Shown here in pieces: positions 6,351 to 62,261 of a stretch of 64,000 nt of DNA (the stretch's first letter is position 1; every line of letters starts with the position of its first letter). Source of the stretch: a phage; sequence record OZ346151.1; one strand, written 5' to 3'. The notes under the pieces were generated by a model that was not told the origin of the DNA, did not search any database, and was given only the letters and a program-made list of their open reading frames with translations. The position numbers were made by a program, and so were the translations under genes.

Positions 6351-6605
6351 ATGAAAATTACTCTGAAGCCAGAATGCGTTGAAAATGACCGAGCTTTTAA
6401 AGATTGCACAATCGGTGCAATTTATGAAGCAGAGTTTTGTGAGAACCCTTTGGTAAAAGCCCTTCTGGAAGAAGGAGCTCCTCTATCACAGGAAGAGCTT
6501 GATGAGTTGGAAAACTCAGCACAGTGCCTTACCTTTAAAGATGATGAAGGAGACTCTGTCTGGTGCACTGTTAATGAAGTAGTTTTTGTAAAACCTGAAC
6601 ATTAA
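6351..6605 (+). CDS. hypothetical protein (paralog of 6669-6941)
   Basis: SD AAGGAG; shares DRAFKDCT.../DDEGD..C(T) pattern with next gene. Confidence 0.55.
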   Translation: MKITLKPECVENDRAFKDCTIGAIYEAEFCENPLVKALLEEGAPLSQEELDELENSAQCLTFKDDEGDSVWCTVNEVVFVKPEH

Positions 6606-6607
6606 TG

Positions 6608-6636
6608 CTTGACAACAGTCATAGGGCCTACTATAA
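6608..6636 (+). promoter_or_regulatory. sigma70 consensus promoter
   Basis: TTGACA, 17-bp spacer, TATAAT. Confidence 0.6.
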
Positions 6637-6668
6637 TGGCCCTATCAAAACGAAAGGGGACCACAGCA

Positions 6669-11986: not shown

Positions 11987-12319
11987 ATGGTAACATTGGA
12001 AAGACGTAAAGCTATTGCCGCCACACTGGCAGACATCTTTTGGGATTGTAATTTAAAATCTACCCGAAATTGTGGTGCATCTGTAGATGTATTATTCCCA
12101 CGGCCTACTATTGTTGCAATGGGCAACCTGCTCGATGTGGTATATGGAGCATGGGACAAGGAAGGTGGATTCTATATCTGGCAACCTGACTACGGGACTT
12201 GGAAAGAGGTTAGTGGTTCTTCGGACTTCACTCCTGCAGTGGCTAAAATGGATGGCTGGAAAATCTATGTCGGTAACGACATGGAACTGAAAGGCGAAAT
12301 TGTTTACTGGTTACCTTAA
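11987..12319 (+). CDS. hypothetical protein
   Basis: Strand-consistent ORF. Confidence 0.5.
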   Translation: MVTLERRKAIAATLADIFWDCNLKSTRNCGASVDVLFPRPTIVAMGNLLDVVYGAWDKEGGFYIWQPDYGTWKEVSGSSDFTPAVAKMDGWKIYVGNDMELKGEIVYWLP

Positions 12320-12340
12320 GAAAGTCCAGGAGATAAAGTT

Positions 12341-12586
12341 ATGAACAAAGGGTGGACATTTGTAGACGGCGTTAAAAACATGCCTCTAGGAAAGTATATT
12401 GTAGCCATGGCAGATGAGAATGGCAAGGTTGATTTCGGAGTTTGCGAGGTTGTTCTTGCAGGATCTGGTGACTATGCTCACAAAACTGGGATAATTAACG
12501 GTCATTTCTACTTTGATTACAACCCTGTTGTGGCGTATATGGCTATGCCAGAGTTCGAGCTCCCAAAGGAAGGTGCAGATGTTTAA
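12341..12586 (+). CDS. hypothetical protein
   Basis: SD AGGAGA before ATG. Confidence 0.5.
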   Translation: MNKGWTFVDGVKNMPLGKYIVAMADENGKVDFGVCEVVLAGSGDYAHKTGIINGHFYFDYNPVVAYMAMPEFELPKEGADV

Positions 12587-12776
12587 GCTTAAATCTGCAT
12601 GGAACATCGCTGTGGGGGACGAGATCCGTATCCCAGGTGGAAAGACCATTATGAAAATATCTCGTATCGAGTACGAAGGTGATCGTGTATTTCATATCTT
12701 TGCAGAAGATGGTCGAGAGATTTATATACAGGTAGGATCTCACATCTATATTCGTAAGAAAGGGGAGGACAAATGA
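12579..12776 (+). CDS. hypothetical protein
   Basis: SD AAGGAAGGTG before ATG 12579. Confidence 0.45.
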   Translation: MFKLKSAWNIAVGDEIRIPGGKTIMKISRIEYEGDRVFHIFAEDGREIYIQVGSHIYIRKKGEDK

Positions 12777-13102
12777 CAGAGATCATCATTTCAACTGCAG
12801 GGTATGTATTCCTGACAATCATTGCACTGGCTATTTTGGTGACAGTGTATGGGTTTGTTATCCTTCCTATCCTTGAGACATTTAGTTTGTGTCGGTGTTG
12901 GAGAAAAGCTTACGGTCCACAACCATGGAAGGACTGGCCCCACCTGGTGCGCTTAGCGTTCTCTTATGCTTACGATCACTCCAGTAGTGCATGCATAACC
13001 GGATACCACGCCCACAACTGGAGCTGGGAAGGGTTGAGGAAATGGAATGTTACAAAGACCATACCTCTGCGCATGTACAAACCTAAAAACAAAGACAACT
13101 GA
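12773..13102 (+). CDS. hypothetical membrane protein
   Basis: SD GGGGAGGA; N-terminal hydrophobic helix. Confidence 0.5.
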   Translation: MTEIIISTAGYVFLTIIALAILVTVYGFVILPILETFSLCRCWRKAYGPQPWKDWPHLVRLAFSYAYDHSSSACITGYHAHNWSWEGLRKWNVTKTIPLRMYKPKNKDN

Positions 13103-14280
13103 TACTTGAAAATTCCTGGCATATCAAGTATAAGGGGGATTTCTAAAATGGATTTCCTCCTTTTGATATTTCACCGGGCTGGATATTTTAAAATTCTTAG
13201 AAAATCAGAAAATGGATCGAAAACTAAAATGGATTTTTCAGAGTAGGCGCGACAAGCTGAATAACTCATCCTATCGTTTGCACCATATTCCAGGCCACCA
13301 TTATAGATTTCCCACACATGCTAACCTCTCCCTACTAGAACTTCCTCCACTTACCCTTGACCTTCTATGGTAACAATCTAACCGCTATCTTGAAGTTGCG
13401 GTGCAGCTTTCCAGGTACTCGATCTACTTTTCATTTCAGGGCTTGGATTTTCTGAAAATTTTTCTCGATAAATTTCTCAGTACTCGATCTGTTTTTCGTT
13501 TTCTGAATCGGATTTTCTGGAAATCGTTCCGGCTCTCAACCTGAAATTTTTGGGGACGAAATCGATTTTTCGTTTTCAGAAATGGATTTTTAAAATTTCT
13601 ATATGGGAATATTTTAGTGGATACTGTTTTATAGGAAATTGTTACGGAGGGTAATTAGCATGCTAATTAAATTTATTAAATGCGAGGAGTTCTCATTTAG
13701 AATTTTGAATGATAATCATTCTCGTTTGCAGAATAACGGGCAGGCCCGGTGATTGTCTCCCGGCCCCTGTTGCCCCGGCTTGTTATTATAGTATCACACA
13801 GGACAAAGAAAGCAAGGACTTTTTGCATAAATTTTTAAATGATAATGATAACCGTTCTCATTTTATGCAGCGCCCATCCCCGGTGGTTGTCTCCCCCGTC
13901 ACCGGTGCCTGCCGTCCTTTCGATATGTATATTGTGCCACCTGGCGGGGCCGCTGTCAACACTTTTCAAAAAATTTTTCTAACCTGGTGCGCTAACCGTT
14001 GCAACCTGGCGGGGCCAGCCTGGCAGGACCTAACTGACCAGGTAGGGGAGAATGAAGGCTTGTAAACCTGGTGGGCCTATGCTACAGGATAGGTAACAAT
14101 TGAAGAGGAGGTACAAAAATGATATGATCCCCCTGGAAAATGTAGCTATTAATGACTCTGAGGCTATCGCCCTGGTTGAAAAGGCTATGGCGGGAGCGTT
14201 GGAACATAAAGAAGAGTACGAAAATGGTGGTTAACCTGGCGGGGGCGGCAGGTGGATTCTATCATAAAAATAATTTAAAA
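13103..14280. repeat. non-coding repeat-rich region (AATGGATTTT-type repeats, ~45-bp direct repeat, ACCTGGCGGGGCC repeats)
   Basis: No RBS-supported ORF; multiple short direct repeats seen by eye. Confidence 0.6.
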
Positions 14281-14286
14281 TAGTAG

Positions 14287-14315
14287 TTGACAACAAGGTT
14301 AATCATGGTATTATT
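14287..14315 (+). promoter_or_regulatory. sigma70-like promoter
   Basis: TTGACA, 17-bp spacer, ATTATT. Confidence 0.5.
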
Positions 14316-14364
14316 ACCCTACAAGGTGAACAACACCGCACTAACCAGTAAAGAGGATAAATTT

Positions 14365-14562
14365 ATGAACGCATACGGGATCAAAGTACGTCGCAACACT
14401 CGCCAGGTGGTCACCAATCAAGTGATTTGCCGGGTGGATGTAACCATCAACAACGGGCAAGGCCTTTATAAATTTCGTCGCGGTCATAGCTATACCCTGC
14501 AACAGCTTAATCGTTGCGCCCTGACAAAAGGTCAGATCAACCACTGGTTTAATAAAAAATAA
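14365..14562 (+). CDS. hypothetical small protein
   Basis: SD AAGAGGAT before ATG 14365. Confidence 0.5.
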   Translation: MNAYGIKVRRNTRQVVTNQVICRVDVTINNGQGLYKFRRGHSYTLQQLNRCALTKGQINHWFNKK

Positions 14563-14565
14563 GTA

Positions 14566-14594
14566 TTGACATACAGTCAGACACCAAATACACT
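14566..14594 (+). promoter_or_regulatory. sigma70-like promoter
   Basis: TTGACA, 17-bp spacer, TACACT. Confidence 0.5.
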
Positions 14595-14626
14595 AAAAGC
14601 ACAAAAGACACTAAGAGGATAAAATC

Positions 14627-14812
14627 ATGAAAACCACTACCTTTAATTTTGATAATGCAGACTTTTCTTTTTCTGATGTCAAGAACTGCCGCCGTGATCG
14701 TGGATTTTACAAGGCTTATAATCTGGTGGGCCTGGACGATGACAATAATTTGCACGAAGTAGCTGAGATCCAGCTTGACAGATTGGACGGGAAAGTACTA
14801 AAAACTTATTGA
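14627..14812 (+). CDS. hypothetical small protein
   Basis: SD AAGAGGAT before ATG. Confidence 0.5.
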   Translation: MKTTTFNFDNADFSFSDVKNCRRDRGFYKAYNLVGLDDDNNLHEVAEIQLDRLDGKVLKTY

Positions 14813-14813
14813 G

Positions 14814-14859
14814 TTTATTTTTAGATGGCCTTGACACCAGGGCCATCAATAAAGTAAAC
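14814..14859 (+). promoter_or_regulatory. 45-bp repeated promoter/operator element, copy 1
   Basis: TTATTTTTAGATGGCCTTGACACCAGGGCCATCAATAAAGTAAAC; dyad GATGGCC/GGCCATC flanking an embedded TTGACA. Confidence 0.55.
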
Positions 14860-14892
14860 TAACCACAGTTGAGCGGAAAAGGAGGCTTAAAG

Positions 14893-15012
14893 ATGAGCAC
14901 TACACGCCAGCACACAAAGGTAACCATCATCGTTTGCATCATTGGGTACATCCTGGCGCAAATGTTGATGGGTAGCGCCAACGGTGTCGCAAAATTTTTC
15001 TTAAACTTTTAA
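14893..15012 (+). CDS. small hydrophobic peptide (39 aa)
   Basis: SD AAAGGAGG before ATG; predicted single TM segment IIVCIIGYILAQMLMG. Confidence 0.45.
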   Translation: MSTTRQHTKVTIIVCIIGYILAQMLMGSANGVAKFFLNF

Positions 15013-15040
15013 TTGACAAGCTAACTTAAATCGATATAAT
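15013..15040 (+). promoter_or_regulatory. sigma70 consensus promoter
   Basis: TTGACA, 16-bp spacer, TATAAT; leader hairpin GGGAAAACTTCCC follows. Confidence 0.6.
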
Positions 15041-15091
15041 AAGCACATAAACGGGAAAACTTCCCAGAACACACAAAAGGAGAAAAACACC

Positions 15092-15433
15092 ATGACTACT
15101 ATGACCGCCTCAGAAAAAGCTATGCAGATCGCTGAACTGAAAAAACAGATCGCAGACCTTGAGAATAAGATCGATAACTTTGAAATCGACGAGGACAAGT
15201 ACGACGAAAACTATGATGAATGGTTAGACGAGATCTACGGCGAAATTATGATCGGAAACATTTCTTTTCTTCCGTCGCGTATCCTCAAGGAGCTAGATCC
15301 TATCGCTTACCGCTGCGGATTTAGCGACTACATCGACAGCCTGGATATTGAGGACGATGAAGAATACCAGGAATTACAGACAGAGTTAGAAGAAGCAAAA
15401 GAAGAGCTTGCGGAGCTGGAAGAAAACGAGTAA
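15092..15433 (+). CDS. hypothetical acidic protein
   Basis: SD AAAGGAG; strongly acidic, predicted helical. Confidence 0.55.
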   Translation: MTTMTASEKAMQIAELKKQIADLENKIDNFEIDEDKYDENYDEWLDEIYGEIMIGNISFLPSRILKELDPIAYRCGFSDYIDSLDIEDDEEYQELQTELEEAKEELAELEENE

Positions 15434-15480
15434 GCTTATTTTTAGATGGCCTTGACACCAGGGCCATCAATAAAGTAAAC
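15434..15480 (+). promoter_or_regulatory. 45-bp repeated promoter/operator element, copy 2
   Basis: Identical to copy 1. Confidence 0.55.
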
Positions 15481-15522
15481 TTTATACTGTTAACACTGAA
15501 CTAATGCATAGGAGTTAAAACC

Positions 15523-15768
15523 ATGGCAGCACTAATCACCAAATATTATGCCCCTACCAACACCAAAAGCGCCCGTATCATGGTAAAAGGCTTCGGACGT
15601 AAAAAGGTGTACACCTGGGATTATGCCTTAGACACGGAAGACAACTACACCAACGCAATGACCGATTTTATTAATGAACTAAATAAGCAGATCTTGACAA
15701 GTTATAAAGTGACCGATATTGCTTATATAGGTGAAGGCGGGATCTGTTTTGTAGGCATTGTGAAATAG
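15523..15768 (+). CDS. hypothetical protein
   Basis: SD AGGAG before ATG. Confidence 0.5.
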   Translation: MAALITKYYAPTNTKSARIMVKGFGRKKVYTWDYALDTEDNYTNAMTDFINELNKQILTSYKVTDIAYIGEGGICFVGIVK

Positions 15769-15769
15769 T

Positions 15770-15815
15770 TATTTTTTCGGTGGTCCTGGTTGCAGGGCCA
15801 TCTATAAAGATAATT
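15770..15815 (+). promoter_or_regulatory. diverged copy of repeated promoter/operator element
   Basis: TTATTTTTTCGGTGGTCCTGGTTGCAGGGCCATCTATAAAGATAA resembles the 45-bp element. Confidence 0.35.
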
Positions 15816-15842
15816 TATTAACACCATGAAAGGAGAAAGTAC

Positions 15843-16196
15843 ATGATCAGCGGGGCAAGTTTTATTATTGGCGCTATTGCTACGGCTTTAATTGTAAATA
15901 AGATCCAGGATAAAAAGGAAAGAGGAAGTACCGCCCTTGCAGAATATCCATTTTGGGCATTCAACGATAACGAAGATTATATTATAAAGTATAAAAATAA
16001 AGAAGGTGACCAAGTAACACCGCGACCGATCCCGGCTTACAAAATGCAGGAAACACTATACCGCCTGGAGGCGGGTGGCGCAAAAATTGTAGACTTTTGG
16101 GGATACGACCACACAGATCAGGAAGTTATAAAGCGCCGTATCCGGGCTATTCAGGCCAATATTGAAGTTAGCAAGGGGGGAATATATGAAAATTAA
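15843..16196 (+). CDS. hypothetical protein with N-terminal TM helix
   Basis: SD AAAGGAGAAAG before ATG. Confidence 0.5.
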   Translation: MISGASFIIGAIATALIVNKIQDKKERGSTALAEYPFWAFNDNEDYIIKYKNKEGDQVTPRPIPAYKMQETLYRLEAGGAKIVDFWGYDHTDQEVIKRRIRAIQANIEVSKGGIYEN

Positions 16197-16383
16197 TTTC
16201 GAGAAAATTGTAAAGCGCCCTCATGATTCCGAAGAGCTGCCAGAACGCCGCCAGCGTAACAATAAACTGAATAAGCCAAAAAGGTTTGGGAAGATCTGGC
16301 GTAATCATTATGATCGTAAATTGCCCGGCCTACTTTTGGAACGTGAACGACAGGCAGAACGATACCGCCATAAAGACAAATAA
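16186..16383 (+). CDS. hypothetical highly basic small protein
   Basis: SD AAGGGGGG before ATG 16186; K/R-rich. Confidence 0.4.
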   Translation: MKINFEKIVKRPHDSEELPERRQRNNKLNKPKRFGKIWRNHYDRKLPGLLLERERQAERYRHKDK

Positions 16384-16391
16384 CAACCAAC

Positions 16392-16420
16392 GCCCCGCCA
16401 TTGTGCGGGGCTTTTTATTT
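16392..16420 (+). terminator. rho-independent terminator
   Basis: GCCCCGC-CATTGT-GCGGGGC then TTTTTATTT. Confidence 0.65.
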
Positions 16421-16540
16421 CTATCCTACGAATAGCGCCCCTGGTTGGCCCTGTAAGCGCCAAAAAGGCCCCCACCTATGCAATCGCCCCTTTAACCTGA
16501 AAACATCGCCCAGGGCCGTTTCATGGCGTTAAAAATATCA

Positions 16541-16568
16541 TTGACATCGTCAACAGGTTAGCTATACT
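16541..16568 (+). promoter_or_regulatory. sigma70-like promoter
   Basis: TTGACA, 16-bp spacer, TATACT. Confidence 0.55.
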
Positions 16569-16600
16569 AACCACATCAAAGAGAGAAAGGAGTAAACGCC

Positions 16601-16861
16601 ATGCGTAAATTAAAAAATTTTGATAAAGTTGATGTTATCCTGAATAATTTTTACTACTGCAACAACAAGGCTATTTGGTGGCGTGATAGTTCCACCGATA
16701 AAGTCAGGGCGCGCTTTCTTCAGGGGCACTGGCAAGGCCGCCCAGTGATTAAAATCATGGGGCAATCGGTAGCGTTTAAAAATTGCCGCCGTGTTGATGA
16801 CGTTGAGGAGATTTTAAACATTTTGCGCCACAATAATTTAAAAAATAGTGTTGACAAGTAA
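16601..16861 (+). CDS. hypothetical protein
   Basis: SD AAAGGAG before ATG. Confidence 0.5.
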   Translation: MRKLKNFDKVDVILNNFYYCNNKAIWWRDSSTDKVRARFLQGHWQGRPVIKIMGQSVAFKNCRRVDDVEEILNILRHNNLKNSVDK

Positions 16862-16878
16862 GCCTCAATAAGTATACT
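16851..16878 (+). promoter_or_regulatory. sigma70-like promoter
   Basis: TTGACA, 16-bp spacer, TATACT; leader hairpin GGCGGGAAAACTTCCCGCC (16888-16906). Confidence 0.55.
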
Positions 16879-16935
16879 TAAACACACAGGCGGGAAAACT
16901 TCCCGCCACTAACAAAGAAAATAGGAGAAAATATC

Positions 16936-17559
16936 ATGACCACCGTTAACATTACCGCAGGTTACAATTTATCTTTCGACGTGCTGACCGACGAACAAAA
17001 AGAAAAAGCCGTTGAAATGGTCCGCGAAAGAGAAGAACACAGCGGGGATAACTTTTTTGCAGAAAGTGTAATTGAATACTATAAAGAATATGTTTTTCCA
17101 GAGTATGGCCTTGAAGATACCGAAGTACATTGGTCAGGCTTTTGGTGCCAGGGTGACGGCGCGTCAATCAGTGCTGAAAACGTGGATTTAGAAAAATTTT
17201 TACGTAAAGTAAAGGCCCTGACCAAGTTCCGATCAATTCGTCACTTGTTCGGCACAATGCACGATGGCGAGTTATCAGCCAGTGTTGAACGCGACAAGTA
17301 CAGCCATTACAGCCATGAAAACACTGTAAGCGGGTACATTGATACCACTTGGCTAGATCTGACCGCCAAACAAGAAAACAAAGTGGAAGACCTGGAAGAA
17401 CTGATCACCGAGACGGTACGGGAGCTATCCCGCAAGGTTTACGTAGACCTGGAGGAGGCCTATCTAGAACAGTTCACCGCAGAAAACCTGATCGGCCTTA
17501 TCGAGGCCAATGATTGGCGGTTTGATGTCGATGAATATGGTGAGATGACTTTTTCATAA
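16936..17559 (+). CDS. hypothetical protein
   Basis: SD AGGAGAA before ATG; 207 aa. Confidence 0.55.
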   Translation: MTTVNITAGYNLSFDVLTDEQKEKAVEMVREREEHSGDNFFAESVIEYYKEYVFPEYGLEDTEVHWSGFWCQGDGASISAENVDLEKFLRKVKALTKFRSIRHLFGTMHDGELSASVERDKYSHYSHENTVSGYIDTTWLDLTAKQENKVEDLEELITETVRELSRKVYVDLEEAYLEQFTAENLIGLIEANDWRFDVDEYGEMTFS

Positions 17560-17567
17560 ATAAAGTG

Positions 17568-17595
17568 TTGCAATAACCTAAAAACCTGCTATATT
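17568..17595 (+). promoter_or_regulatory. sigma70-like promoter
   Basis: TTGCAA, 16-bp spacer, TATATT; leader hairpin 17605-17624. Confidence 0.5.
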
Positions 17596-17649
17596 AAAAC
17601 TCAAGGGGGCAAGACGTTTGCCCCAACACAAAACAAAGAGGATAACATC

Positions 17650-18030
17650 ATGAAAAACACTACCAAGGCTATTGACACCGTTATGTTTAACCTGGTTACA
17701 TTCCGTGAAGATATGAAAGATCTTCCTCGTGAAACAGTGTGCGACCATATCGAAAACTATCGCAAACTAATCAAAGAGTTGCCTTTAAAACGTGATCAAT
17801 ATGCGGCTAACGCCATGCTTAATGCCATGATCAAAAAGATGATCCAGTGTGATTTAACCCTGGCCTATGATTATGCAGGCGGTCGTTTTGCAGTATACAA
17901 TCAGCCCGTGCCCGGTATGAGCACCACCGAAGAATTGCACGCGCTCAATCTAAAACAAGACGTGTGGGATAGTATGCCTCGCGTGGTGGTATGGGTAGAA
18001 AGCGGAAAGATTTACGGCGATAATTTTTAA
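17650..18030 (+). CDS. hypothetical protein
   Basis: SD AAGAGGA before ATG. Confidence 0.55.
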   Translation: MKNTTKAIDTVMFNLVTFREDMKDLPRETVCDHIENYRKLIKELPLKRDQYAANAMLNAMIKKMIQCDLTLAYDYAGGRFAVYNQPVPGMSTTEELHALNLKQDVWDSMPRVVVWVESGKIYGDNF

Positions 18031-18039
18031 TCAGGTAGC

Positions 18040-18066
18040 AGGCGGCATATTTGCCGCCTTATTGTT
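18040..18066 (+). terminator. putative rho-independent terminator
   Basis: AGGCGGCATATTTGCCGCCT then TATTGTT. Confidence 0.5.
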
Positions 18067-18094
18067 AATCAGAACTGTAAAAGAGGTACATAGA

Positions 18095-18466
18095 ATGGAA
18101 TTTATTATTTTGGCTGTATTGGTTGCCTTGTTTAACGCCTGGATCGCTGGCAAGATGGGAAGATCCGCCTTTTTATGGTTTATTATATCTATTTTCCTGG
18201 GGGTGGTTGCAACTATTGTATTGGTTATCCTTGCAATTGTTGACAAGGGGAATAATAGAAAGGGTAAAGTATTTTCAGACCTGTACGACGCTCAAACGTT
18301 TGTCAACGCCTATTATAGTGATCTTCCAGTCTCCCTACGTTGCAGCCTTGCACAACAGGTTTTCGATGAAGCTAAAACCAGAGATCACGCCCATGAGATT
18401 TGTTTAACTGAGGCGGATCGCCTATTTGAGAGGAATAGAAAATATGTGGACCAGCCGTTTAAATAA
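18095..18466 (+). CDS. hypothetical membrane protein
   Basis: SD AAGAGG before ATG 18095; two predicted N-terminal TM helices. Confidence 0.5.
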   Translation: MEFIILAVLVALFNAWIAGKMGRSAFLWFIISIFLGVVATIVLVILAIVDKGNNRKGKVFSDLYDAQTFVNAYYSDLPVSLRCSLAQQVFDEAKTRDHAHEICLTEADRLFERNRKYVDQPFK

Positions 18467-18576
18467 TGCCACGTTAATTAACCCCTTTAGTAAAGATTTG
18501 AAGCCAGCCGCCTGGCGGGATGGATTCAATAACGAACGCTTTATTTTCAGGCCTGATCTTGAGGAATTTTATAACA

Positions 18577-18804
18577 ATGGATCGAACAACAGCGGAGATA
18601 ATTTTTCTTGTGGTGTGTGTCGTGATAGGACTCCTGGGGGCCATTGTAGATCGCGTCACTACTACCAGAAGGAAAGGGGAGACGATGACAACCAAGGATA
18701 AGCCCCGCACCGATAAGGTGCGCCGTGTTATGGTATGGCTTGAGATCATCGCCCTTGAAATATTGTTAGGCGTAGGGATGTATTTTATCTCTGTAAGTAA
18801 CTGA
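18577..18804 (+). CDS. hypothetical small membrane protein (alternative: 18444-18701 in another frame)
   Basis: Hydrophobic segments; ends just before terminator; frame choice uncertain. Confidence 0.35.
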   Translation: MDRTTAEIIFLVVCVVIGLLGAIVDRVTTTRRKGETMTTKDKPRTDKVRRVMVWLEIIALEILLGVGMYFISVSN

Positions 18805-18808
18805 TAAC

Positions 18809-18840
18809 GGCCCCCGATCCCTGGGGGGCCTAACTTTTTT
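18809..18840 (+). terminator. rho-independent terminator
   Basis: GGCCCCC-GATCCCT-GGGGGCC then TAACTTTTTT. Confidence 0.6.
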
Positions 18841-18863
18841 CAAAAAATTTTTCTTCCGGGGTG

Positions 18864-18891
18864 TTGCAATCCGGTCCTGAATATGGATAAT
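18864..18891 (+). promoter_or_regulatory. sigma70-like promoter
   Basis: TTGCAA, 16-bp spacer, GATAAT; leader hairpin GGGGAAACATCCCC. Confidence 0.5.
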
Positions 18892-18947
18892 AACAATCAA
18901 CGGGGAAACATCCCCACCAACACAAAAACCAGAAAGGAGAAACAAAA

Positions 18948-19148
18948 ATGAGCAACAATATCCGCGTTATTAACTTCAAAAAAGAAGAAAAAATTGCCGT
19001 GCTGATTGACGGTCAAGAAATCTTCAAGGGCGACTATGAAGATCATCAAACGGCGATTAGTATCACTCGCGTGATTGGTTACCATAATTTTTACCCCCAA
19101 GGCGCTGAGGCGGCGGTTAAACGAATCAAAGAGATTGTAGGCCTGTAA
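18948..19148 (+). CDS. hypothetical small protein
   Basis: SD AAAGGAG before ATG. Confidence 0.5.
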   Translation: MSNNIRVINFKKEEKIAVLIDGQEIFKGDYEDHQTAISITRVIGYHNFYPQGAEAAVKRIKEIVGL

Positions 19149-19150
19149 AA

Positions 19151-19196
19151 TTTATTTTTAGATGGCCTTGACTCTAGGGCCATCAATAAAGTAAAT
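19151..19196 (+). promoter_or_regulatory. 45-bp repeated promoter/operator element, copy 3
   Basis: Same element with TTGACT variant. Confidence 0.5.
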
Positions 19197-19241
19197 TTAA
19201 ACCCTGTTAAAATACCACGCAGTTAACAAGGAGTAATGATC

Positions 19242-19541
19242 ATGTTTATCCAGGCTAATAATCTTTATTTCTTTGATGGTCAGATCGTAGATGGTGTGGA
19301 AGTGGAGATCACTGGGTGCCCTGGTGGTCAGGCTATGACTTTTCGGAATAATGCCTTTGATGATTCTCATATCGTTATGAGAATGGAAGTTACAAAGCTG
19401 GACGACAAGAAAACGCTCATTGACTATTCCGTGAAAGATCATCCAGACTACCACATGATCTATGGTGATTTGTGCATTGTTGACCGTGACAAGGTGGGCG
19501 GCATTGTGATCGCTATTGTGAACGATGTTTTCTCTGTATAG
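19242..19541 (+). CDS. hypothetical protein
   Basis: SD AAGGAG 8 nt before ATG 19242. Confidence 0.5.
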   Translation: MFIQANNLYFFDGQIVDGVEVEITGCPGGQAMTFRNNAFDDSHIVMRMEVTKLDDKKTLIDYSVKDHPDYHMIYGDLCIVDRDKVGGIVIAIVNDVFSV

Positions 19542-19599
19542 TTCCGGCAAATGATGCAAAATAAGGCCCCTAGCAGGGCCTACAGCGATATAATCACAT

Positions 19600-19633
19600 A
19601 AAGGCCATGCAACCGCATGGCCTTTATTATTTT
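19600..19633 (+). terminator. rho-independent terminator
   Basis: AAAGGCCATGC-AACC-GCATGGCCTTT then ATTATTTT. Confidence 0.6.
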
Positions 19634-19680
19634 GGCGTTACAGCGGCCCCAAGGCGCTTAAAAATTTTTTAAAGAAGTAC

Positions 19681-19708
19681 TTGCATCAAGCCCTACAATA
19701 TGGATAAT
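19681..19708 (+). promoter_or_regulatory. sigma70-like promoter
   Basis: TTGCAT, 16-bp spacer, GATAAT. Confidence 0.5.
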
Positions 19709-19766
19709 AGGACGTGTCAGGGGGGGGAGGCCCCAATCATTAACCGGATAGATAGGAGTTAAAACC

Positions 19767-20051
19767 ATGGCTATTGTTACCGCTGGCGATGTAGTAGAAA
19801 TGGAAGCAAAATACTTAAAAGCGGGTATGCATATCCTACGCAACGATCTTGAACTGGTCCTGACAATGGTTGACTATAACCCAGGGCAAGATTATCCAAG
19901 TGTTGACTACTTTTTTGAGTATGTTGATGAAGAGTTGAAAGAGGATGAGGCCTATTGCGGTGAGTTCTGCAACTTCTTTTGTCCTGATGAGGTTGTAAAG
20001 GTTATCTATCAACCTGGCGTAGCTTTCCCGCTGCACGCTATCAATAAATAA
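19767..20051 (+). CDS. hypothetical protein
   Basis: SD AGGAG before ATG. Confidence 0.5.
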   Translation: MAIVTAGDVVEMEAKYLKAGMHILRNDLELVLTMVDYNPGQDYPSVDYFFEYVDEELKEDEAYCGEFCNFFCPDEVVKVIYQPGVAFPLHAINK

Positions 20052-20055
20052 ACCT

Positions 20056-20080
20056 GGCGGGGGCCTTTTCGGCCCCCGCC
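20056..20080 (+). terminator. GC-rich perfect hairpin (terminator-like, no clear U-tract)
   Basis: GGCGGGGGCC-TTTTC-GGCCCCCGCC. Confidence 0.4.
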
Positions 20081-20114
20081 TGAAATTATGAAAAATAAAA
20101 AGAGGCAAACTATC

Positions 20115-20348
20115 ATGATGGAACAAATTAAACGCGCTGAGGCTATTAATGGCAATGTAATCTATTTTGTCAGCAAAAACGAAAAAGGCGTACCCTATGC
20201 GGCGGTAATAGTACAGCCTGACGGCGATTATTGGTGCACTGTGTACGGCGCTTATTCTTTTGGGCGTCCAGTGCATGATAAAATTTTGAAAGTAGCGAAC
20301 CCTACCGGGAAAAATATTACAGCAGAAAAATTTTTTGAAAAAAGTTGA
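20115..20348 (+). CDS. hypothetical protein
   Basis: SD AAGAGG 9 nt before ATG 20115. Confidence 0.5.
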   Translation: MMEQIKRAEAINGNVIYFVSKNEKGVPYAAVIVQPDGDYWCTVYGAYSFGRPVHDKILKVANPTGKNITAEKFFEKS

Positions 20349-20375
20349 CATGACCATATAAAACTGTAGTATATA
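20345..20375 (+). promoter_or_regulatory. sigma70-like promoter
   Basis: TTGACA, ~17-bp spacer, TAGTAT/TATATA; leader hairpin 20383-20398. Confidence 0.5.
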
Positions 20376-20424
20376 AATCAAAGGGGGCAACAAGCCCCAC
20401 CAACCACAAAGAGGATAAAAAATC

Positions 20425-20604
20425 ATGGCTATTATTGCAAAGACCGAGATCGTAGGCTTAGATTCTATTCTCCTCGCATATGAGGAAGCTATAGAAATGT
20501 ATGTGGTTTCCTATGGTGAGTATATCCGTGAATATGAATCTATTGATCTAGCTTTTGAATGTTATATTCGCCAGGTTAATAAAGCGTACGATGATTATCG
20601 TTAA
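20425..20604 (+). CDS. hypothetical small protein (59 aa)
   Basis: SD AAGAGGAT before ATG 20425; below the 60-aa ORF-track threshold. Confidence 0.45.
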   Translation: MAIIAKTEIVGLDSILLAYEEAIEMYVVSYGEYIREYESIDLAFECYIRQVNKAYDDYR

Positions 20605-20610
20605 AATAGT

Positions 20611-20643
20611 TTGACAACAAACAACCATCTAACAAAGCATAAT
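20611..20643 (+). promoter_or_regulatory. possible promoter (weak -10)
   Basis: TTGACA at 20611; -10 assignment ambiguous; leader hairpin 20651-20671. Confidence 0.35.
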
Positions 20644-20695
20644 ACATAAGGTGGTAGAATGATCCGCCACCCGGAACAAAGAAGAGGTAAACACC

Positions 20696-20941
20696 ATGAA
20701 AAGCAATAAAGGTTATAACGGTTACAAAAACAAAACTCATTGGAATGTAAGCCTTTGGATTAATAACGATGAGTCATTGTACCGGTTGGCCCAAGGATTT
20801 ATTAACGCTAATGCTAATCGTAATGATGCGGCGCGGGATATGATGCTTTTTCTGGAGCTAACCGGACAAGATAAGACCCCGGACGGCTTCAAGTACAGCA
20901 CTACGGCGATCCGTGCCGCGATGGTTGGAATGAAACACTAA
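20696..20941 (+). CDS. hypothetical protein
   Basis: SD GAAGAGG before ATG. Confidence 0.5.
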   Translation: MKSNKGYNGYKNKTHWNVSLWINNDESLYRLAQGFINANANRNDAARDMMLFLELTGQDKTPDGFKYSTTAIRAAMVGMKH

Positions 20942-20949
20942 AAGCACAT

Positions 20950-22980
20950 AGCCGCCAGATCTCAGAATTTACGTACGCTCACCAGTCTATAGCCTGCTAA
21001 GTATTTATTCCAACCATAGAATAACGGAATAGTCAATACCTGCATAAAATAATTATTCGTGTAAACTGCATAACATAAATCGGCTAGGATGTCAACATTT
21101 TTCGTAAACAGCTCGAAATTATAACGGTGAGTTATAATAAACAGAGAAATCTTTAGTCGTCTAATGTTTACTGTACATTACTATACTGACTGGAATCATT
21201 AGATGACTAAGAGAAAGATAAGAAATCATTAACAATGCAATTGTTTTATTCGTAACAATAAGGCAACTATGCAAACGGATGGCATGGCGCGACGGAGTCG
21301 CGACATAATATAAAAGCAGTAACCATCACCCCCGTGATAGTTTGTCTGCAAACTATTAATCAGATCATAGTTGCCTTGTATTTAGTTAATCATGACATAA
21401 CAAGCAAGGCAACTATAGATCTGCTAATAGTTGCCCTGCTTTTATATTATGTCATAGATTATTAGCCTGTTAATTGTTAGTCAGTCAAATCAACAACGTT
21501 ATCATTTCAGTCTTTATTGTTGTTGATCGTTATTGTTATCATGCAAACGAATGGCATGGCTTATCATTTTTGAGTAAACAATCTATACGTGAACAGTGAG
21601 GCATGCAATAGTAAGGGCGGGAATAATGAGAGTGTAAACTGTCAAGGGTAATGTCAATTATATCAATCGTGTCAGTTATGTCACCATTATGTCAGCAGAG
21701 TTTTTCTCCTCTTTGTCAAGTGCTGCATGCCCACACAAATAGTAAGAAATATAATTGTTATGTGCGTAAACAGTAACTCATGTTATCAATCCCTGTATGT
21801 ATCGCCAGTGGTGCGCATAATGGGTATTATGTTAAATTGCCCGTAATGATAATGGTTCTCACAATGATAGGTATTCTCATTCCCCCACACAAAATAGATT
21901 GCAAATGTTGTGCCACTATGTGAACGGCCTCACCTATTAATTTGCCTCACTGCCTCGATATTTGAGAATTATCATAAGAATGAGAAGTATTCCCATTTCG
22001 TCCGCCTGGCAGCACTCCAGTCGCTACGGCTCAGAACAGGGCAGAATTGTGTCCATTCAGATATTTCTGTCTGGCTCTTCAGGTCTGTGTGGGAAAAGTC
22101 CACCTCTCTGGCGGGGCATGGGGTCATGACGGGAAAATTGCAGGTCAATTAAAAAATTTACGTGGTGTATGAAGCGCTCTTCAGGTAAGGCATGTATTAT
22201 GGGATGAAACCCTCTTCAGGCAATGATATTTGTGGGTGTGATATTTGCTGGAAAGCCAGATATGACGGGACTCCCGGCGGGGCAGGGGTAGTACAGACAG
22301 GGGAAATATGGAGGATGTGGTTAGGTGAATTGATCAGACAGGTAGAGTATGGAATATGTTACAGGTATGTTAAATAGGGCGGCTGAATATCTGTAGGATT
22401 TGTGTGTAAAATCAAAGACTTAAGTGGTGTTGTGGTATTTTCTATAAATAATTCAAGTTTAATAGGTAATATTTGTCTCTATTCGCTTTGTGTGGTAAAC
22501 AGATTCAGATGAGATTGGTTTACAAGCGTATACATAATATACAAATTAAAGATACAAGAAACCCCCCTCCCCCTTCGGCTACCATTCACCTTTTCCTCTG
22601 ACTGGTACTTAAACACTTATTCAGACTCTTCAGGTTATCACCCATATATCATATGGCAGTGACTGGTGTCCTCCGGCCCCTCTTTCGTCACCCGTCCGCT
22701 TCGCCATGCTAATGCCATAGCCAATGGTTCGGTTGTTCACCCTGTTCACTCAGGTGTATCTCCATACCCCTTCAAAACGAAGAGAACAGAAAACCCGAAT
22801 TACTCGGTAAAAGAAAAGAGAAGAACTTAATTTTATCAGGATAGGCAAGAATGTCAAGGCATGACTGCTCACTAAACAAGCAAACAGTCATGTGTGGGAG
22901 GTAAGTGATTGTGGTGGTAGGAAATTTAGTTGAAAGATGTGTTATAGGTGCTTCCAGCACTTTAGCCGGGCAGCTAATTG
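20950..22980. repeat. ~2 kb non-coding, repeat-rich zone at the convergence of the plus and minus transcription blocks
   Basis: No RBS-supported ORFs; 20-bp near-identical repeat ATGCAAACG(G/A)ATGGCATGGC at 21268 and 21540; AAGGCAACTAT/ATAGTTGCC inverted copies 21258-21440; clustered TGTCA and CTCTTCAGG repeats. Confidence 0.6.
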
Positions 22981-26295: not shown

Positions 26296-26645
26296 TATTC
26301 GTCCTCCTCTTCGGTGCCTGCTTCCAGTAATAAGTTAAGAATATCTTCTGCACAAGGCTCATAGAACTCTTGGCCTTCATTATCGATGATTTTGTAGTCA
26401 TCTCCACGAATAATCAGGGGATCACTCTCAAAATTATCGAGACCTTTAACAACGACAACACGATCGATTGCCATCATTGTAAGAACTTTATCGACATCTT
26501 CCTCTGCTACACCATACTGCAGCAGAATGTCTTTGGTAGGAGGAACAGCATCCACCACAACGCCGTTACCAAAACCTTCTGGAAGTTTAGCTAAAATATC
26601 TTCCGGAACCACATTCACATCAAAACCGGTAATTTCTACTTTCAT
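26295..26645 (-). CDS. small acidic protein, distant member of tandem paralog family
   Basis: MKVEITG start; acidic C-terminus. Confidence 0.5.
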   Translation of the reverse strand: MKVEITGFDVNVVPEDILAKLPEGFGNGVVVDAVPPTKDILLQYGVAEEDVDKVLTMMAIDRVVVVKGLDNFESDPLIIRGDDYKIIDNEGQEFYEPCAEDILNLLLEAGTEEEDE

Positions 26646-26906
26646 TTACAGCACCTCTTCGTCAACTACTTCATAAAAATGGCCTGGGATTGCAATAGCG
26701 TTCTCACCTTCACCTGCAAACACAGTTCCGTCAAGAATCAACATCATAAGAATTTCTGTAATATCCTCTTCCGGAACGTTGCCAAAACCTTTAATCAGCT
26801 CGTAGGTTGGAATATTTACATCTAAGATGTCACCATCTTTAGAACGGAAATCAACACCGTCCTGAATCTCTGCCGTTTCAAGGTTTTTCAATTTAATCTT
26901 CATCAA
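26646..26906 (-). CDS. small acidic protein, tandem paralog family
   Basis: MMKIKLKNLE start; C-terminus FYEVVDEEVL; own promoter upstream. Confidence 0.55.
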   Translation of the reverse strand: MMKIKLKNLETAEIQDGVDFRSKDGDILDVNIPTYELIKGFGNVPEEDITEILMMLILDGTVFAGEGENAIAIPGHFYEVVDEEVL

Positions 26907-28339: not shown

Positions 28340-28476
28340 TTAGAGGTCTCCTCAATTATTTGATATTAATAGCCGTAACCTAACACATTAACTACAACTG
28401 CGATTGCAAACATAATTTCAAAGCATGCAATCTCTACATTTGGGACTAATTTCTTAATCACACCCATTGTAGCACC

Positions 28477-28797
28477 TCATTCTCCAAAGTCAATCTTTAC
28501 TTTGCCTTTCCCCTTACCTTTCTTTCCACCGCATTTAGCCAGCTGACGTGCTGCAACATCTACCATACGGTCAGTTGCCTCGTAAGCATCACTGCCTTTA
28601 GCCTTGGCAATAACTTCTTTTCCAGAATTGTCAAAAATGAACGCCATAACTTCCTGGTGATCATTTTCAACTTTTACACTTACACGTGCATAGTTAACAG
28701 AGGGATGTAAACGCTCCAGCTTGGACATTTTGCGGGAAATAAAAGATACCATACCTTCTGTGATTTCTACATTGTTGCCAGTGATTTCAATTTGCAT
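28477..28797 (-). CDS. hpf: ribosome hibernation promoting factor / YfiA (RaiA) family homolog
   Basis: N-terminus MQIEITGNNVEITEGM... closely matches E. coli HPF MQLNITGNNVEITEAL (from memory); size ~106 aa; basic C-terminal tail. Confidence 0.7.
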   Translation of the reverse strand: MQIEITGNNVEITEGMVSFISRKMSKLERLHPSVNYARVSVKVENDHQEVMAFIFDNSGKEVIAKAKGSDAYEATDRMVDVAARQLAKCGGKKGKGKGKVKIDFGE

Positions 28798-31133: not shown

Positions 31134-31417
31134 TTTCTAGTCCTCTTCTTAGATTTTTGGGGAGAAACGCTTTCTGCAATACGAGACAGACGTTCTTCTG
31201 AAGCCTTACCTACTCCAGGTTTTTTGAGTGGATTATCTTTATGACCACAATCCAACTGGATATTGGATACCTCTCCAACTTTGTAAGTCAATTCTAGCAA
31301 AAGGTTGTCGTCCTTGTCAAATGTTTTTACGATAAATTTTTTATCGTTCTCCTGAACTTCATATCTGGTACCTGCAGTATACAGCATGGTGCCATCAGCA
31401 TAGGATATCCAGATCAT
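31130..31417 (-). CDS. hypothetical protein
   Basis: Strand-consistent ORF. Confidence 0.5.
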   Translation of the reverse strand: MIWISYADGTMLYTAGTRYEVQENDKKFIVKTFDKDDNLLLELTYKVGEVSNIQLDCGHKDNPLKKPGVGKASEERLSRIAESVSPQKSKKRTRK

Positions 31418-31761
31418 TGAGCCTCCTTTTGCTGCAACAGCATTAACTCTTTGTTAGAGATCTTTACTGCTGTTTTTATTGTTCCATCTTCACGAAACCA
31501 CGACCAGAACTCTACAGTGTCACCACTATCAAGTAAAGCATGCCCATGGTAAAAATCTTTGTCCTTAGACAGTTTCTCATCTATATCTGCATCAACACAT
31601 TCGTGATCCAGAGCATTTTGCCTGAACGCATCGGTTATGCCAATGCACGCCTTGCTCTCAAGACTGGTATATCCGATATCTTTTAATTCAGTTTCCCAAG
31701 TCCAGTACCCTATAAAAGCTAAAACAGCTACCCACAGTAATAACGTTTTAATCTTTGGCAT
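31414..31761 (-). CDS. hypothetical protein with N-terminal signal/TM segment
   Basis: N-terminus MPKIKTLLLWVAVLAFIGYWTW hydrophobic. Confidence 0.5.
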   Translation of the reverse strand: MPKIKTLLLWVAVLAFIGYWTWETELKDIGYTSLESKACIGITDAFRQNALDHECVDADIDEKLSKDKDFYHGHALLDSGDTVEFWSWFREDGTIKTAVKISNKELMLLQQKEAQ

Positions 31762-31823
31762 TCTCTCTACCTCTTTCTTAGTTTATTTCACTATGGCACA
31801 TCCTTTGTGCCATATCTCAACTA

Positions 31824-32294
31824 CTACTTAAATAGTAGTTCAAAATAGTGCAAAATTAACAGAAGTTGAACTACACCTAGTGCAACGGCGAGTATGTTAA
31901 TCTTAGAATCGAAAAACTTCTTAACTTTTACTCTAAAAGGTTCCTTAATGTCCTTTACGATCCTATCTATAGATGACCTCATATCTCTGATTACCATCCT
32001 GAACATTAAAGACGGATGCTCCCCCATCTCCGTAACGGAATCGAAAACATACTCTCTTCGGTCATAAGGGCCGCCAGCTCTGCGTATTAACCTCTCCACA
32101 GAGACCTCGAACGTCACACCTGTAACGTAATCATCTATAACAAGTCGTGACGGGTCTTTACCTTTACTATCAAGAGGTATCAAAGTTATCTTTCCAGATT
32201 TTGTTAAAATTTCCCCTTTTTCAAGCAAGGTGTACCAATGCTCTCTGCCAAGACTGTTGAGGCACGTTTTTACATATTTAACAAACATCGTCAC
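31824..32294 (-). CDS. hypothetical protein with C-terminal TM segment
   Basis: C-terminal LAVALGVVQLLLILHYF hydrophobic. Confidence 0.5.
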   Translation of the reverse strand: MTMFVKYVKTCLNSLGREHWYTLLEKGEILTKSGKITLIPLDSKGKDPSRLVIDDYVTGVTFEVSVERLIRRAGGPYDRREYVFDSVTEMGEHPSLMFRMVIRDMRSSIDRIVKDIKEPFRVKVKKFFDSKINILAVALGVVQLLLILHYFELLFK

Positions 32295-61746: not shown

Positions 61747-62097
61747 ATGAAAGATGGGGATAAGCTGCTATATCTTAAAGTCCCCCTTGAAATACTATCT
61801 ATGTCAAAAGTTTTGAATGACACAACTGGGGAGGTTGTTGTTCTTGACTTGTATGACAAGATCGTATACTGCTACCTGCACAACTGGTATAAGCTTGGAG
61901 GAAATTCACGCTTCACACCAAGCACAAGGAAAATTGCAGCAGATGTTGGGATAAAGAAAACAAAAGCAGCAGCGTGCGTTAAAACTTTAGAATGTGCAGG
62001 AGTGGTTGAAACATCCACACAAGGGAGAGGTAAAAGATGCACATTTTCCAAAGTTTTGCCACCAGAAGAAGTTATTCGGATGTCAACAACTGGTTAG
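61747..62097 (+). CDS. putative winged-helix DNA-binding protein (initiator or repressor)
   Basis: SD AGGAGA; wHTH-like segment RKIAADVGIKKTKAAACVKTLECAGVVE; followed directly by palindrome array. Confidence 0.5.
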   Translation: MKDGDKLLYLKVPLEILSMSKVLNDTTGEVVVLDLYDKIVYCYLHNWYKLGGNSRFTPSTRKIAADVGIKKTKAAACVKTLECAGVVETSTQGRGKRCTFSKVLPPEEVIRMSTTG

Positions 62098-62173
62098 ACC
62101 AGTAAAAACTTAAATATCTGTACTATAAGGATTCGTATGTTTTATGTTCGCCATGGAACGGATACTATTAACT

Positions 62174-62252
62174 GTCCGTGATACGGACACTACTGTCCGT
62201 CACGCGGACACATCTGCCCGTAATACGGACACTAACTGTCCGTGATACGGAC
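62174..62252. repeat. four phased 15-bp palindromes (iteron/operator array)
   Basis: GTCCGTGATACGGAC (62174), GTCCGTCACGCGGAC (62195), GCCCGTAATACGGAC (62216), GTCCGTGATACGGAC (62238); spacing 21-22 bp. Confidence 0.75.
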
Positions 62253-62261
62253 ACATAAAGA

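Follow-up and report, generated by a model that had tools for sequence, protein, structure and literature searches.

A repeated intercistronic element of an rV5-like phage carries a covarying sense-strand RNA hairpin overlapped by promoter-like sequence

In a 64,000-nt stretch of phage DNA (sequence record OZ346151.1; "the window" below means this whole stretch), a 49-nt element recurs four times on the + strand, each time between the stop codon of one small gene and the start of the next. A preliminary description of the same DNA had taken its dyad symmetry for a candidate operator shared by the genes downstream. Here we find that the symmetry is that of a covarying two-turn hairpin in the sense-strand RNA, over which promoter-like sequence is laid in three of the four copies, and we consider it very probable that the element contains a functional sense-strand RNA structure. 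Taken as a whole, the explanation that we favour, with slightly less than even confidence, is an intercistronic cassette of the promoter/stem-loop type (PeSL), in which a hairpin processed by RNase III is combined with an overlapping sigma70 promoter.

Four copies of the element follow stop codons

The sequences at 14812-14860, 15433-15481 and 19149-19197 are 92-100% identical, and a fourth copy at 15767-15815 has diverged to 71%. Numbered by position, the copies and their parts are as follows.

14812-14860, + strand: copy 1; its first base is the last of the stop codon TGA 14810-12, and the next ATG is at 14893
14812-14821/14851-14860 and 14824-14833/14838-14847: lower and upper stems of copy 1
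14822-23/14848-50 and 14834-37: internal loop and tetraloop (ACAC) of copy 1
14831-14836 and 14855-14860: promoter-like hexamers TTGACA and TAAACT of copy 1, with an 18-bp spacer
15433-15481, + strand: copy 2, 48/49 identical to copy 1 and with the same hairpin; TTGACA 15452-15457, TAAACT 15476-15481; its first base is the last of the stop codon TAA 15431-33, and the next ATG is at 15523
15767-15815, + strand: copy 3, the diverged one (71%); hairpin complete, -35 absent (CTGGTT); overlaps the stop codon TAG 15766-68, and the next ATG is at 15843
19149-19197, + strand: copy 4, 45/49 identical; hairpin loop ACUC; TTGACT 19168-19173, TAAATT 19192-19197; follows the stop codon TAA 19146-48, and the next ATG is at 19236 (19242 under the start used in the isim annotation)

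An exact 45-mer, TTATTTTTAGATGGCCTTGACACCAGGGCCATCAATAAAGTAAAC, is shared by copies 1 and 2 (14815-14859 and 15436-15480), so that the identical copies reported earlier are real, with starts misplaced by 1-2 nt; also present as had been described are the TTGACT variant (19152-19195) and, at 34-35/49 identity, the diverged copy (15767-15815). It also holds for all four copies, as claimed there, that they lie between a stop codon and the next gene: each begins at -1 to +1 of the stop-codon end, continues with TTTATTTTT, and leaves 27-44 nt between its own end and the next start codon, with GGAGG or AGGAG preceding the ATG.

When a 24-nt core was searched with at most three mismatches, it matched three times in the window against 0.00 expected (100 shuffles), and a covariance model scored at every window position gave strong scores at the four copies only, all on the + strand. 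Beyond the window the element was found in 121 phage records, mostly at three near-identical places per genome. The rV5-derived phage rV5_ev146 (L074, LR699804.1, 131.9 kb) has copies 2 and 3 only, the surroundings of copies 1 and 4 having been deleted or replaced. Rfam covariance models run over 12000-22000 with E up to 1 gave no match at the copies, and a literature search for the motif returned only unrelated primer matches. A pattern scan of IMG/VR yielded 67 loci, of which only two contigs were real (L023/L035 and L034), adding little diversity, and homologues of the flanking 81-aa protein, followed in search of distant homologous contexts, belong to unrelated phages that do not carry the element.

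The symmetry belongs to a sense-strand RNA helix

Folded as + strand RNA, the element forms one long hairpin, which in order reads AGUUUAUUUU, UA, GAUGGCCUUG, ACAC, CAGGGCCAUC, AAU and AAAGUAAACU. It comprises a 10-bp AU-rich lower stem, a 2x3 internal loop, a 10-bp GC-rich upper stem and a tetraloop, and spans approximately two helical turns. The inverted repeat GATGGCC/GGCCATC of the preliminary description is thereby confirmed and, as RNA, extends to 10 bp around a 4-nt loop; of the TTGACA that had been placed in the loop, ACA(C) does form it, but TTG is paired. Folding energies of the + strand are -25.1, -21.1, -22.4 and -21.5 kcal/mol for copies 1 to 4 (z = -5.2 to -7.8), and the - strand folds more weakly (-17.2 kcal/mol for copy 1, -8.1 kcal/mol for copy 3). 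A minus-strand promoter or RNA structure was considered and dropped as weak, after folding and the covariance-model scan.

The diverged copy 3 is particularly informative in this respect: 14 of its 49 positions are changed, yet all 20 pairs are retained. In its upper stem an A-U pair has become G·U, a C-G pair U·G and a U·G pair C-G, and in the lower stem two adjacent pairs have been exchanged on both sides, which makes two double compensatory changes. The same pattern extends to an alignment of 40 copies, 30 of them distinct, that was assembled from 12 sources, among them the window, eight Vequintaviruses in GenBank and the two IMG/VR contigs, and in which 98.5% of the cells pair, compared to 34-57% with slid partners. 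Double changes occur at four pairs, every one-sided change in the upper stem goes via G·U, and the observed covariation score was reached in 0 of 500 shuffles. The substitutions are strand-biased as well, with 77 G·U cells against 6 A·C cells, and the mean fold of the 30 distinct sequences is -23.4 kcal/mol in the sense and -14.7 kcal/mol in the antisense direction, the sense strand being the stronger in 29 of the 30. Unpaired positions are strongly conserved too, namely the internal loop and, in copies 1, 2 and 4, the loop AC. Because symmetry acting in duplex DNA or in a cruciform would give no strand bias, we do not read the element in either of these ways, and we infer that the hairpin forms in vivo.

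These results bear directly on the operator first proposed, a double-stranded DNA site for a dimeric repressor or activator that would overlap the -35 and co-regulate the downstream genes. In three copies the 7-bp arms GATGGCC/GGCCATC are indeed perfect on either side of the -35-like hexamer, and conservation over the 45 bp is high, which speaks for such a site. However, the wobble is strand-asymmetric, both in the Vequintavirus copies (77:6) and in the more distant relatives described below (29:3), the changes are compensatory, the symmetry runs to a 20-bp interrupted helix, far beyond operator length, and copy 3 keeps the structure without a -35. The half-site centres are 17 bp apart and the stems of the relatives vary; since they differ even within one genome, a single sequence-specific DNA-binding protein could not read the relatives' copies. 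On these grounds the operator lacks support, and it now seems very improbable. Co-regulation of the flanking genes stays plausible by way of a common promoter type, but a dedicated regulator is unsupported.

The winged helix-turn-helix (wHTH) protein encoded at 61747-62097, which had been suggested as a candidate binder and is the one candidate that was examined, was rejected in this role: its open reading frame (ORF) matches phrog_12838 'replication initiation protein' (5e-80) and adjoins four iterons of its own. The four iterons form a tandem array at 62169-62254, after the wHTH ORF, with a repeat length of 21-22 bp and a GTCCGT..ACGGAC dyad in every repeat, and to judge from this arrangement 61747-62254 looks like an initiator-plus-iteron replication origin module.

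A promoter-like sequence overlaps the hairpin

Copies 1 and 2 contain TTGACA-N18-TAAACT, a 10/12 match to the sigma70 consensus, and copy 4 (TTGACT/TAAATT) matches at 9/12; copy 3 has no -35, and the hairpin thus clearly persists without the promoter. Comparison of the genomes shows an unchanged TTGAC in 22 of the 23 distinct copies that belong to types 1, 2 and 4, whereas loop positions 3 and 4, just after it, vary (A/C/G/T and C/T). TTG is paired in the stem and therefore the informative signal is the conserved loop AC, which agrees with a -35 hexamer whose sixth position is free. We lean towards the view that the predicted promoter is active in copies 1, 2 and 4. The element is omitted from the promoter/terminator table of the rV5 paper (PMC3606486), because spacers of only 15-17 bp were allowed there. 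The preliminary description had offered a combined terminator-promoter punctuation element as a second possibility, and this comes near to the reading favoured here; its promoter half is plausible (10/12, with the PeSL anatomy described next), but the hairpin is not followed by the U-tract of an intrinsic terminator.

The element resembles promoter/stem-loop cassettes of T4-like phages

PeSLs, known from RB49, phi1 and further T4-like phages, consist of a stop codon in an AT-rich stretch, a sigma70-like early promoter, a stem-loop, and a Shine-Dalgarno sequence with a start codon (Arbiol et al. 2010, PMC2839356; Comeau et al. 2014, PMC4122927). Five placements of the stem-loop are described, among them across the -35 and across the -10, and it has G-T pairs; the cassettes are found among small ORFs of unknown function and serve as recombination sites (PMC2839356, PMC4122927). 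The window element has this anatomy, with its start at a stop codon, its stem-loop over the -35-like hexamer, its Shine-Dalgarno sequence and start codon, and its place among small early ORFs, and we regard it as probably a composite cassette of the PeSL type. It adds a Vequintavirinae member to that class, the added feature being the covarying two-turn RNA helix. No description of such cassettes for Vequintavirinae or Stephanstirmvirinae was found in the literature searched.

There are also differences. In RB49 the stem-loop is a short hairpin with a G(n)/C(n) stem of 7-8 bp, whereas here an interrupted two-turn helix of 19-22 bp shows heavy covariation. Unlike the RB49 PeSLs, the Vequintavirus copies no longer have the -35 and the -10 in their ancestral places, and one of them is promoterless; with four copies per genome, there is also little shuffling.

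One genome does record an exchange between copies. Phage ECP26 has a single chimeric copy, with the upstream flank of copy 1 and the downstream flank of copy 2, and is without the 39-aa and 113-aa genes that lie between these copies, the one such case among ~120 genomes; 115 records have the gene cassette that separates copies 1 and 2, compared to the 121-124 that hold the element or region. Judging from the chimeric flanks, this gene loss is the outcome of recombination within the repeat. Such an event, together with the near-identity of copies within a genome, could be taken to mean that the element is a mobile or recombinogenic repeat without regulatory role, kept by spread or gene conversion. 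Against this, ~120 genomes show a constant number of copies, 3 (+1), in constant places and without expansion, nearby indels (for example ~690 bp at 14764-14771) are not bounded by copies, and the covariation shows selection on structure, so that a purely mobile repeat is hardly credible.

The Vequintavirus element is part of a wider family

Outside Vequintavirus, the covariance model gave a weak match, in register, in phage Av-05 (Avunavirus; L077 10338-10398). The matching sequence recurs once more within Av-05, and relatives of it are present in Klebsiella phages belonging to the Stephanstirmvirinae and in Salmonella phage SSBI34 (Vequintavirinae). These cassettes, here called class A, follow the pattern (A/T)GTTGAC(T/G)TTT..GTTATGnnnnn-TATAAT-nnnnnCATAGAnAAnAGAAAC and contain a TTGAC-N16-TATAAT promoter. 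Their upper stem of 10-12 bp is formed by the 3' half of the spacer and the initial transcribed region, which places the -10 hexamer in the loop, and the -35 sits in a lower stem. Thirteen class A cassettes from Av-05, SSBI34, 05F01 and KP13-26 have a total helix within 19-22 bp; RNAalifold predicts 19 pairs for them, 10 of which show compensatory double changes and one of which, a U·G pair, is invariant. The ratio of G·U to A·C is 29:3, and class A copies of one genome differ widely in stem sequence while having the same structure.

In the reciprocal test, the best match of the class A model in the window was copy 1, weak and again in register. The two families also have a 3' flank in common, AAAG(T/A)AAACTAACCAC, seen for instance as AAAGAAACTAACCAC in 05F01 and AAAGTAAACTAACCAC in copy 1. 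We link class A and the Vequintavirus element because of these reciprocal weak top matches in register and the common 3' flank. In this comparison the Vequintavirus element is a derived member of a wider family, which has lost the ancestral -35 (GTTGAC, now GTTTAT) and -10 loop (TATAAT, now a tetraloop), with TTGAC now at the top of the stem. The structure is constant across the family, and the predicted promoter overlaps it in differing registers.

The same frame, AAGTTGTTGAC...TATAAT...GAAAC, is common to the RB49 PeSLs and class A. Folded RB49 intergenic regions share the order AAAAGTTGTTGAC, stem-loop, TATAAT and CATACCGAAACGA with class A cassettes, and the weak RB49 matches of the class A model fall on these PeSL-bearing regions. 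In addition, the 'conserved early promoter' of Certrevirus, AAAA(N3)TGTTGAC(N17-19)TATAAT (Buttimer et al. 2020, PMC7344957), has the same consensus as the class A relatives, and both are clustered among short early ORFs (PMC7344957); that paper describes the promoter only and mentions no stem-loop. From the corresponding register of the window's 45-bp element, a promoter of the Certrevirus type is gone.

The class A model also brought up two more relatives within the window itself.

31771-31826, - strand: distant hairpin-only relative, TAG-TTGAGATATGGCACA-AAGGA-TGTGCCATAGTGAAATAAACT; weak covariance-model match
6603-6666, + strand: class A/PeSL-like cassette with a perfect TTGACA-N17-TATAAT, just upstream of ATG 6670

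The former begins at the stop codon of ORF 31824-32294, upstream of ORF 31414-31761, in sense orientation within a minus-strand cluster, and has no promoter-like hexamers. In the latter, which lies outside the early cluster, an 8-bp stem (ATAGGGCC/GGCCCTAT) brackets the -10 hexamer. Weaker class A matches in the window (28439-28499 and 26629-26671) were dropped, as they did not fold into a hairpin.

The copies lie within putative early transcription units

Over 110 complete genomes of rV5-like E. coli myoviruses (Vequintavirus, ~137 kb) match the window region 14000-20000 at 93-95% identity. Seventeen GenBank records titled 'Campylobacter phage' (MG0656xx) show ~95% identity to the E. coli Vequintavirus region, and their host labels look doubtful. 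The segment 12-21 kb is a series of small + strand ORFs labelled hypothetical in every record; for those flanking the copies (39-117 aa) no Pfam family was found, and PHROG matches were solely to 'unknown function'. A scan for sigma70-like promoters across 12-21 kb returned 49 near-consensus sites, compared to 28.6 expected, with a 12/12 match at 15013, and canonical hairpin-plus-U-tract terminators lie on the + strand at 16392, 18040, 18809 and 19598. The signals that delimit the units are as follows.

14287-14314, + strand: sigma70-like promoter, 11/12; read-through transcripts would include copies 1-3
14566-14594 and 15013-15040: further sigma70-like promoters, the latter 12/12
16392-16411, + strand: canonical intrinsic terminator, 7 GC pairs then TTTTTATTT; closes the unit with copies 1-3
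19598-19627: terminator resembling the one at 16392; closes the unit with copy 4

The promoters at 14287 and 14566 and the terminator at 16392 thus define one unit, with copies 1-3 between its cistrons, and copy 4 lies between both genes of the unit delimited by the terminators at 18809 and 19598. This layout suggests that the segment 12-21 kb is an early region served by host RNA polymerase, which has also been proposed for rV5 (PMC3606486).

Insertions and deletions between related genomes are found around the copies, in what is a variable region. Compared to rV5 and isim, the window phage is without ~690 bp at 14764-14771, and this deletion, which is particular to the window, joins the N-terminus of a phrog_7028 protein to the C-terminus of a phrog_13245 protein, giving the 61-aa ORF 14627-14812. 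A repeat-mediated origin was rejected for it: the breakpoint lies inside coding sequence, ~45 bp upstream of copy 1. Like other indels, it is not bounded by copies.

Several other repeats and hairpins were seen in the same part of the genome. Three tandem repeats of 65-74 bp at 13405-13590 occupy a gene-poor part of the early region, and Av-05 has a comparable triple repeat (L077 7949-8153) with a CTCGATC core in common. A near-perfect long hairpin or palindrome (~25 bp, -28 kcal/mol) at 21360-21423 is close to the switch in gene orientation. A second promoter type, at 15013-15077 and 16851-16916, has the consensus TTGACA-N16-TATAAT/TATACT followed by a GC-rich hairpin in the 5' untranslated region (CGGGAAAACTTCCCG) and recurs in Av-05, SSBI34 and KP13-26.

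Processing by RNase III is favoured over termination

Given a hairpin directly after a gene, intrinsic termination is the obvious function to consider, as intrinsic terminators likewise consist of a stable GC-rich hairpin in this position. A terminator scan that called 22 sites in the region found none at any copy, however, and the tails after the hairpins (AACCACAG, TTATACTG, TATTAACA and TAAACCCT) contain no U-tract. Unlike in intrinsic terminators, the A-rich tail of the window element pairs with its U-rich leader and thereby lengthens the helix. With no U-tract on either strand, a canonical intrinsic terminator was rejected.

A less canonical form of the same idea is that the hairpin attenuates or terminates transcription and so insulates each promoter-gene module, the promoter restarting transcription without involvement of an RNase. 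The anatomy is identical to that of PeSLs, the upper stem is stable and GC-rich, and the stem-loop of RB49 PeSL211/210 (GGGGATCACGTATCCCC, L081 23222-23308), which has no U-tract after it either, reduced downstream lacZ as much as rrnB T1 (PMC2839356). This reporter result, though, cannot tell termination from RNA cleavage. In the window, there is no U-tract after the upper stem (AAUAAAGU) or after the whole hairpin, the same region uses canonical terminators at 16392, 18040, 18809 and 19598, and neither the covarying 10-bp AU-rich lower stem nor the conserved length of ~20-22 bp is necessary for termination. Attenuation accordingly appears unlikely, although it is the strongest of the alternatives.

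The same architecture is awkward for a barrier to 3'-to-5' exonucleases, resembling repetitive extragenic palindromes (REP), which would prolong the life of the upstream cistron without an endonucleolytic cut. A very stable, sense-strand-specific intercistronic hairpin directly after the stop codon would suit this role; a short GC stem would suffice for it, however, and the two-turn interrupted architecture and conserved internal loop would be left unexplained. We therefore consider a pure exonuclease block rather improbable. The conserved unpaired positions (the internal loop, and the loop AC of copies 1, 2 and 4) and the location of the copies upstream of terminators within early units could instead indicate a site for a phage RNA-binding protein, such as a nut/put-type antiterminator, a translational regulator or a phage endoribonuclease. 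Here no candidate protein was found, the flanking ORFs being without family assignment; stem sequences vary widely between copies of one related-genus genome, the downstream ribosome-binding site lies clear of the hairpin, and transcripts from the cassette's own promoter would be without the hairpin. Such a site is improbable, and somewhat more so than the exonuclease barrier.

The covarying two-turn helix points to RNA processing. Reactivity epitopes of E. coli RNase III comprise two helical turns and an internal loop (PMC1540722, PMC3867540), and cuts in a single strand leave protective 3' hairpins (PMC1540722, PMC3867540). The helix measures 10 + 10 bp in the window copies and 20-22 bp in Av-05, 05F01, SSBI34 and KP13-26, in line with the two turns (~20-22 bp) described for RNase III substrates, and the 2x3 internal loop lies in mid-helix between both stems. 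In copies 1, 2 and 4, U-A and U-G come next beneath the loop-closing pair and make up the canonical distal box as found in R1.1 (PMC1540722), and the proximal-box pair pb2 is A-U. This match to an RNase III substrate is suggestive; it may be due to chance, because pb1 and pb3 are non-optimal and the class A relatives are without the distal box.

A parallel is offered by the early R sites of T7. Folded likewise, R0.3, R0.5, R1, R1.1 and R1.3 show a GC upper stem of 9-10 bp (13 in R1.3), an internal loop and a lower stem, with terminal loops of 3 to 5 nt. In T7 as in the window, similar hairpins of about two turns are repeated between the cistrons of a polycistronic early transcript, and in T7, too, promoters adjoin RNase III sites. 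The two differ in that there is no sequence homology, the internal loop of the window element is smaller (2x3), its proximal box is non-optimal, the hairpin is superimposed on the promoter, and the window region would be transcribed by host polymerase throughout.

On this basis we favour processing or stabilisation by RNase III, itself held tentatively, over attenuation and over a pure exonuclease block. In the proposed mechanism, the hairpin would be made only within read-through mRNA from upstream early promoters and would punctuate the polycistronic early transcript directly after a stop codon. Host RNase III would cut in or near the internal loop, as at the T7 early R sites, leaving the upstream message stabilised by a 3' hairpin and uncoupling the downstream cistron. 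In copies 1, 2 and 4 an overlapping sigma70 promoter (with TTGAC as -35 in the stem top and loop, a spacer of 18 bp, and TAAAYT as -10 in the 3' arm of the lower stem) would start the transcript of the next gene ~6-8 nt beyond the hairpin, copy 3 being hairpin-only, and the direct-repeat copies double as recombination sites that delete gene cassettes. Along with the formation of the RNA in vivo, RNase III as the effector and the firing of the promoter are the parts of this explanation that we infer.

Several points weigh against this explanation and temper our confidence in it. Copies 1, 2 and 4 are near-identical within and between genomes, so part of their 'conservation' is shared ancestry, and the relative at 31771-31826 has merely a weak lower stem. 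For the promoter, neither the 18-bp spacer nor the TAAACT hexamer is optimal, and this -10 is inseparable from the pairing constraint of the lower stem. As for RNase III, pb1 (U-A) and pb3 (G-C) are not the pairs that are optimal in the minimal T7 substrate, copy 3 and the class A relatives have not retained the UA/UG distal box, and a literature search returned no transcript mapping, transcription start site or RNase III cleavage data for these phages. Finally, in the sole experiment on this kind of cassette, that with RB49 PeSL211/210, the authors interpreted the effect as termination or attenuation (PMC2839356).

Implications

A tempting model of a shared repressor operator is replaced by a testable one. 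Promoter/stem-loop cassettes, hitherto described for T4-like phages only, are extended to two more subfamilies that include therapeutic-type phages of E. coli, Klebsiella and Salmonella. Their conserved core is a covarying sense-strand RNA helix and not the promoter, which questions the published 'terminator' reading. For practical purposes, the repeats are natural deletion and insertion points for the engineering of rV5-like phages, and they mark transcript boundaries for annotation.

A broader and more doubtful proposition is that Vequintavirinae and Stephanstirmvirinae, as large lytic phages dependent on the host polymerase, punctuate their early mRNAs in a T7-like manner, with conserved two-turn RNase III hairpins superimposed on the promoters of the next genes. 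If this were true, processed read-through transcripts and fresh transcripts would converge on nearly the same 5' untranslated region, the expression of each gene would be independent of its upstream context, and the published 'terminator' effect of PeSLs would be one of RNA processing.

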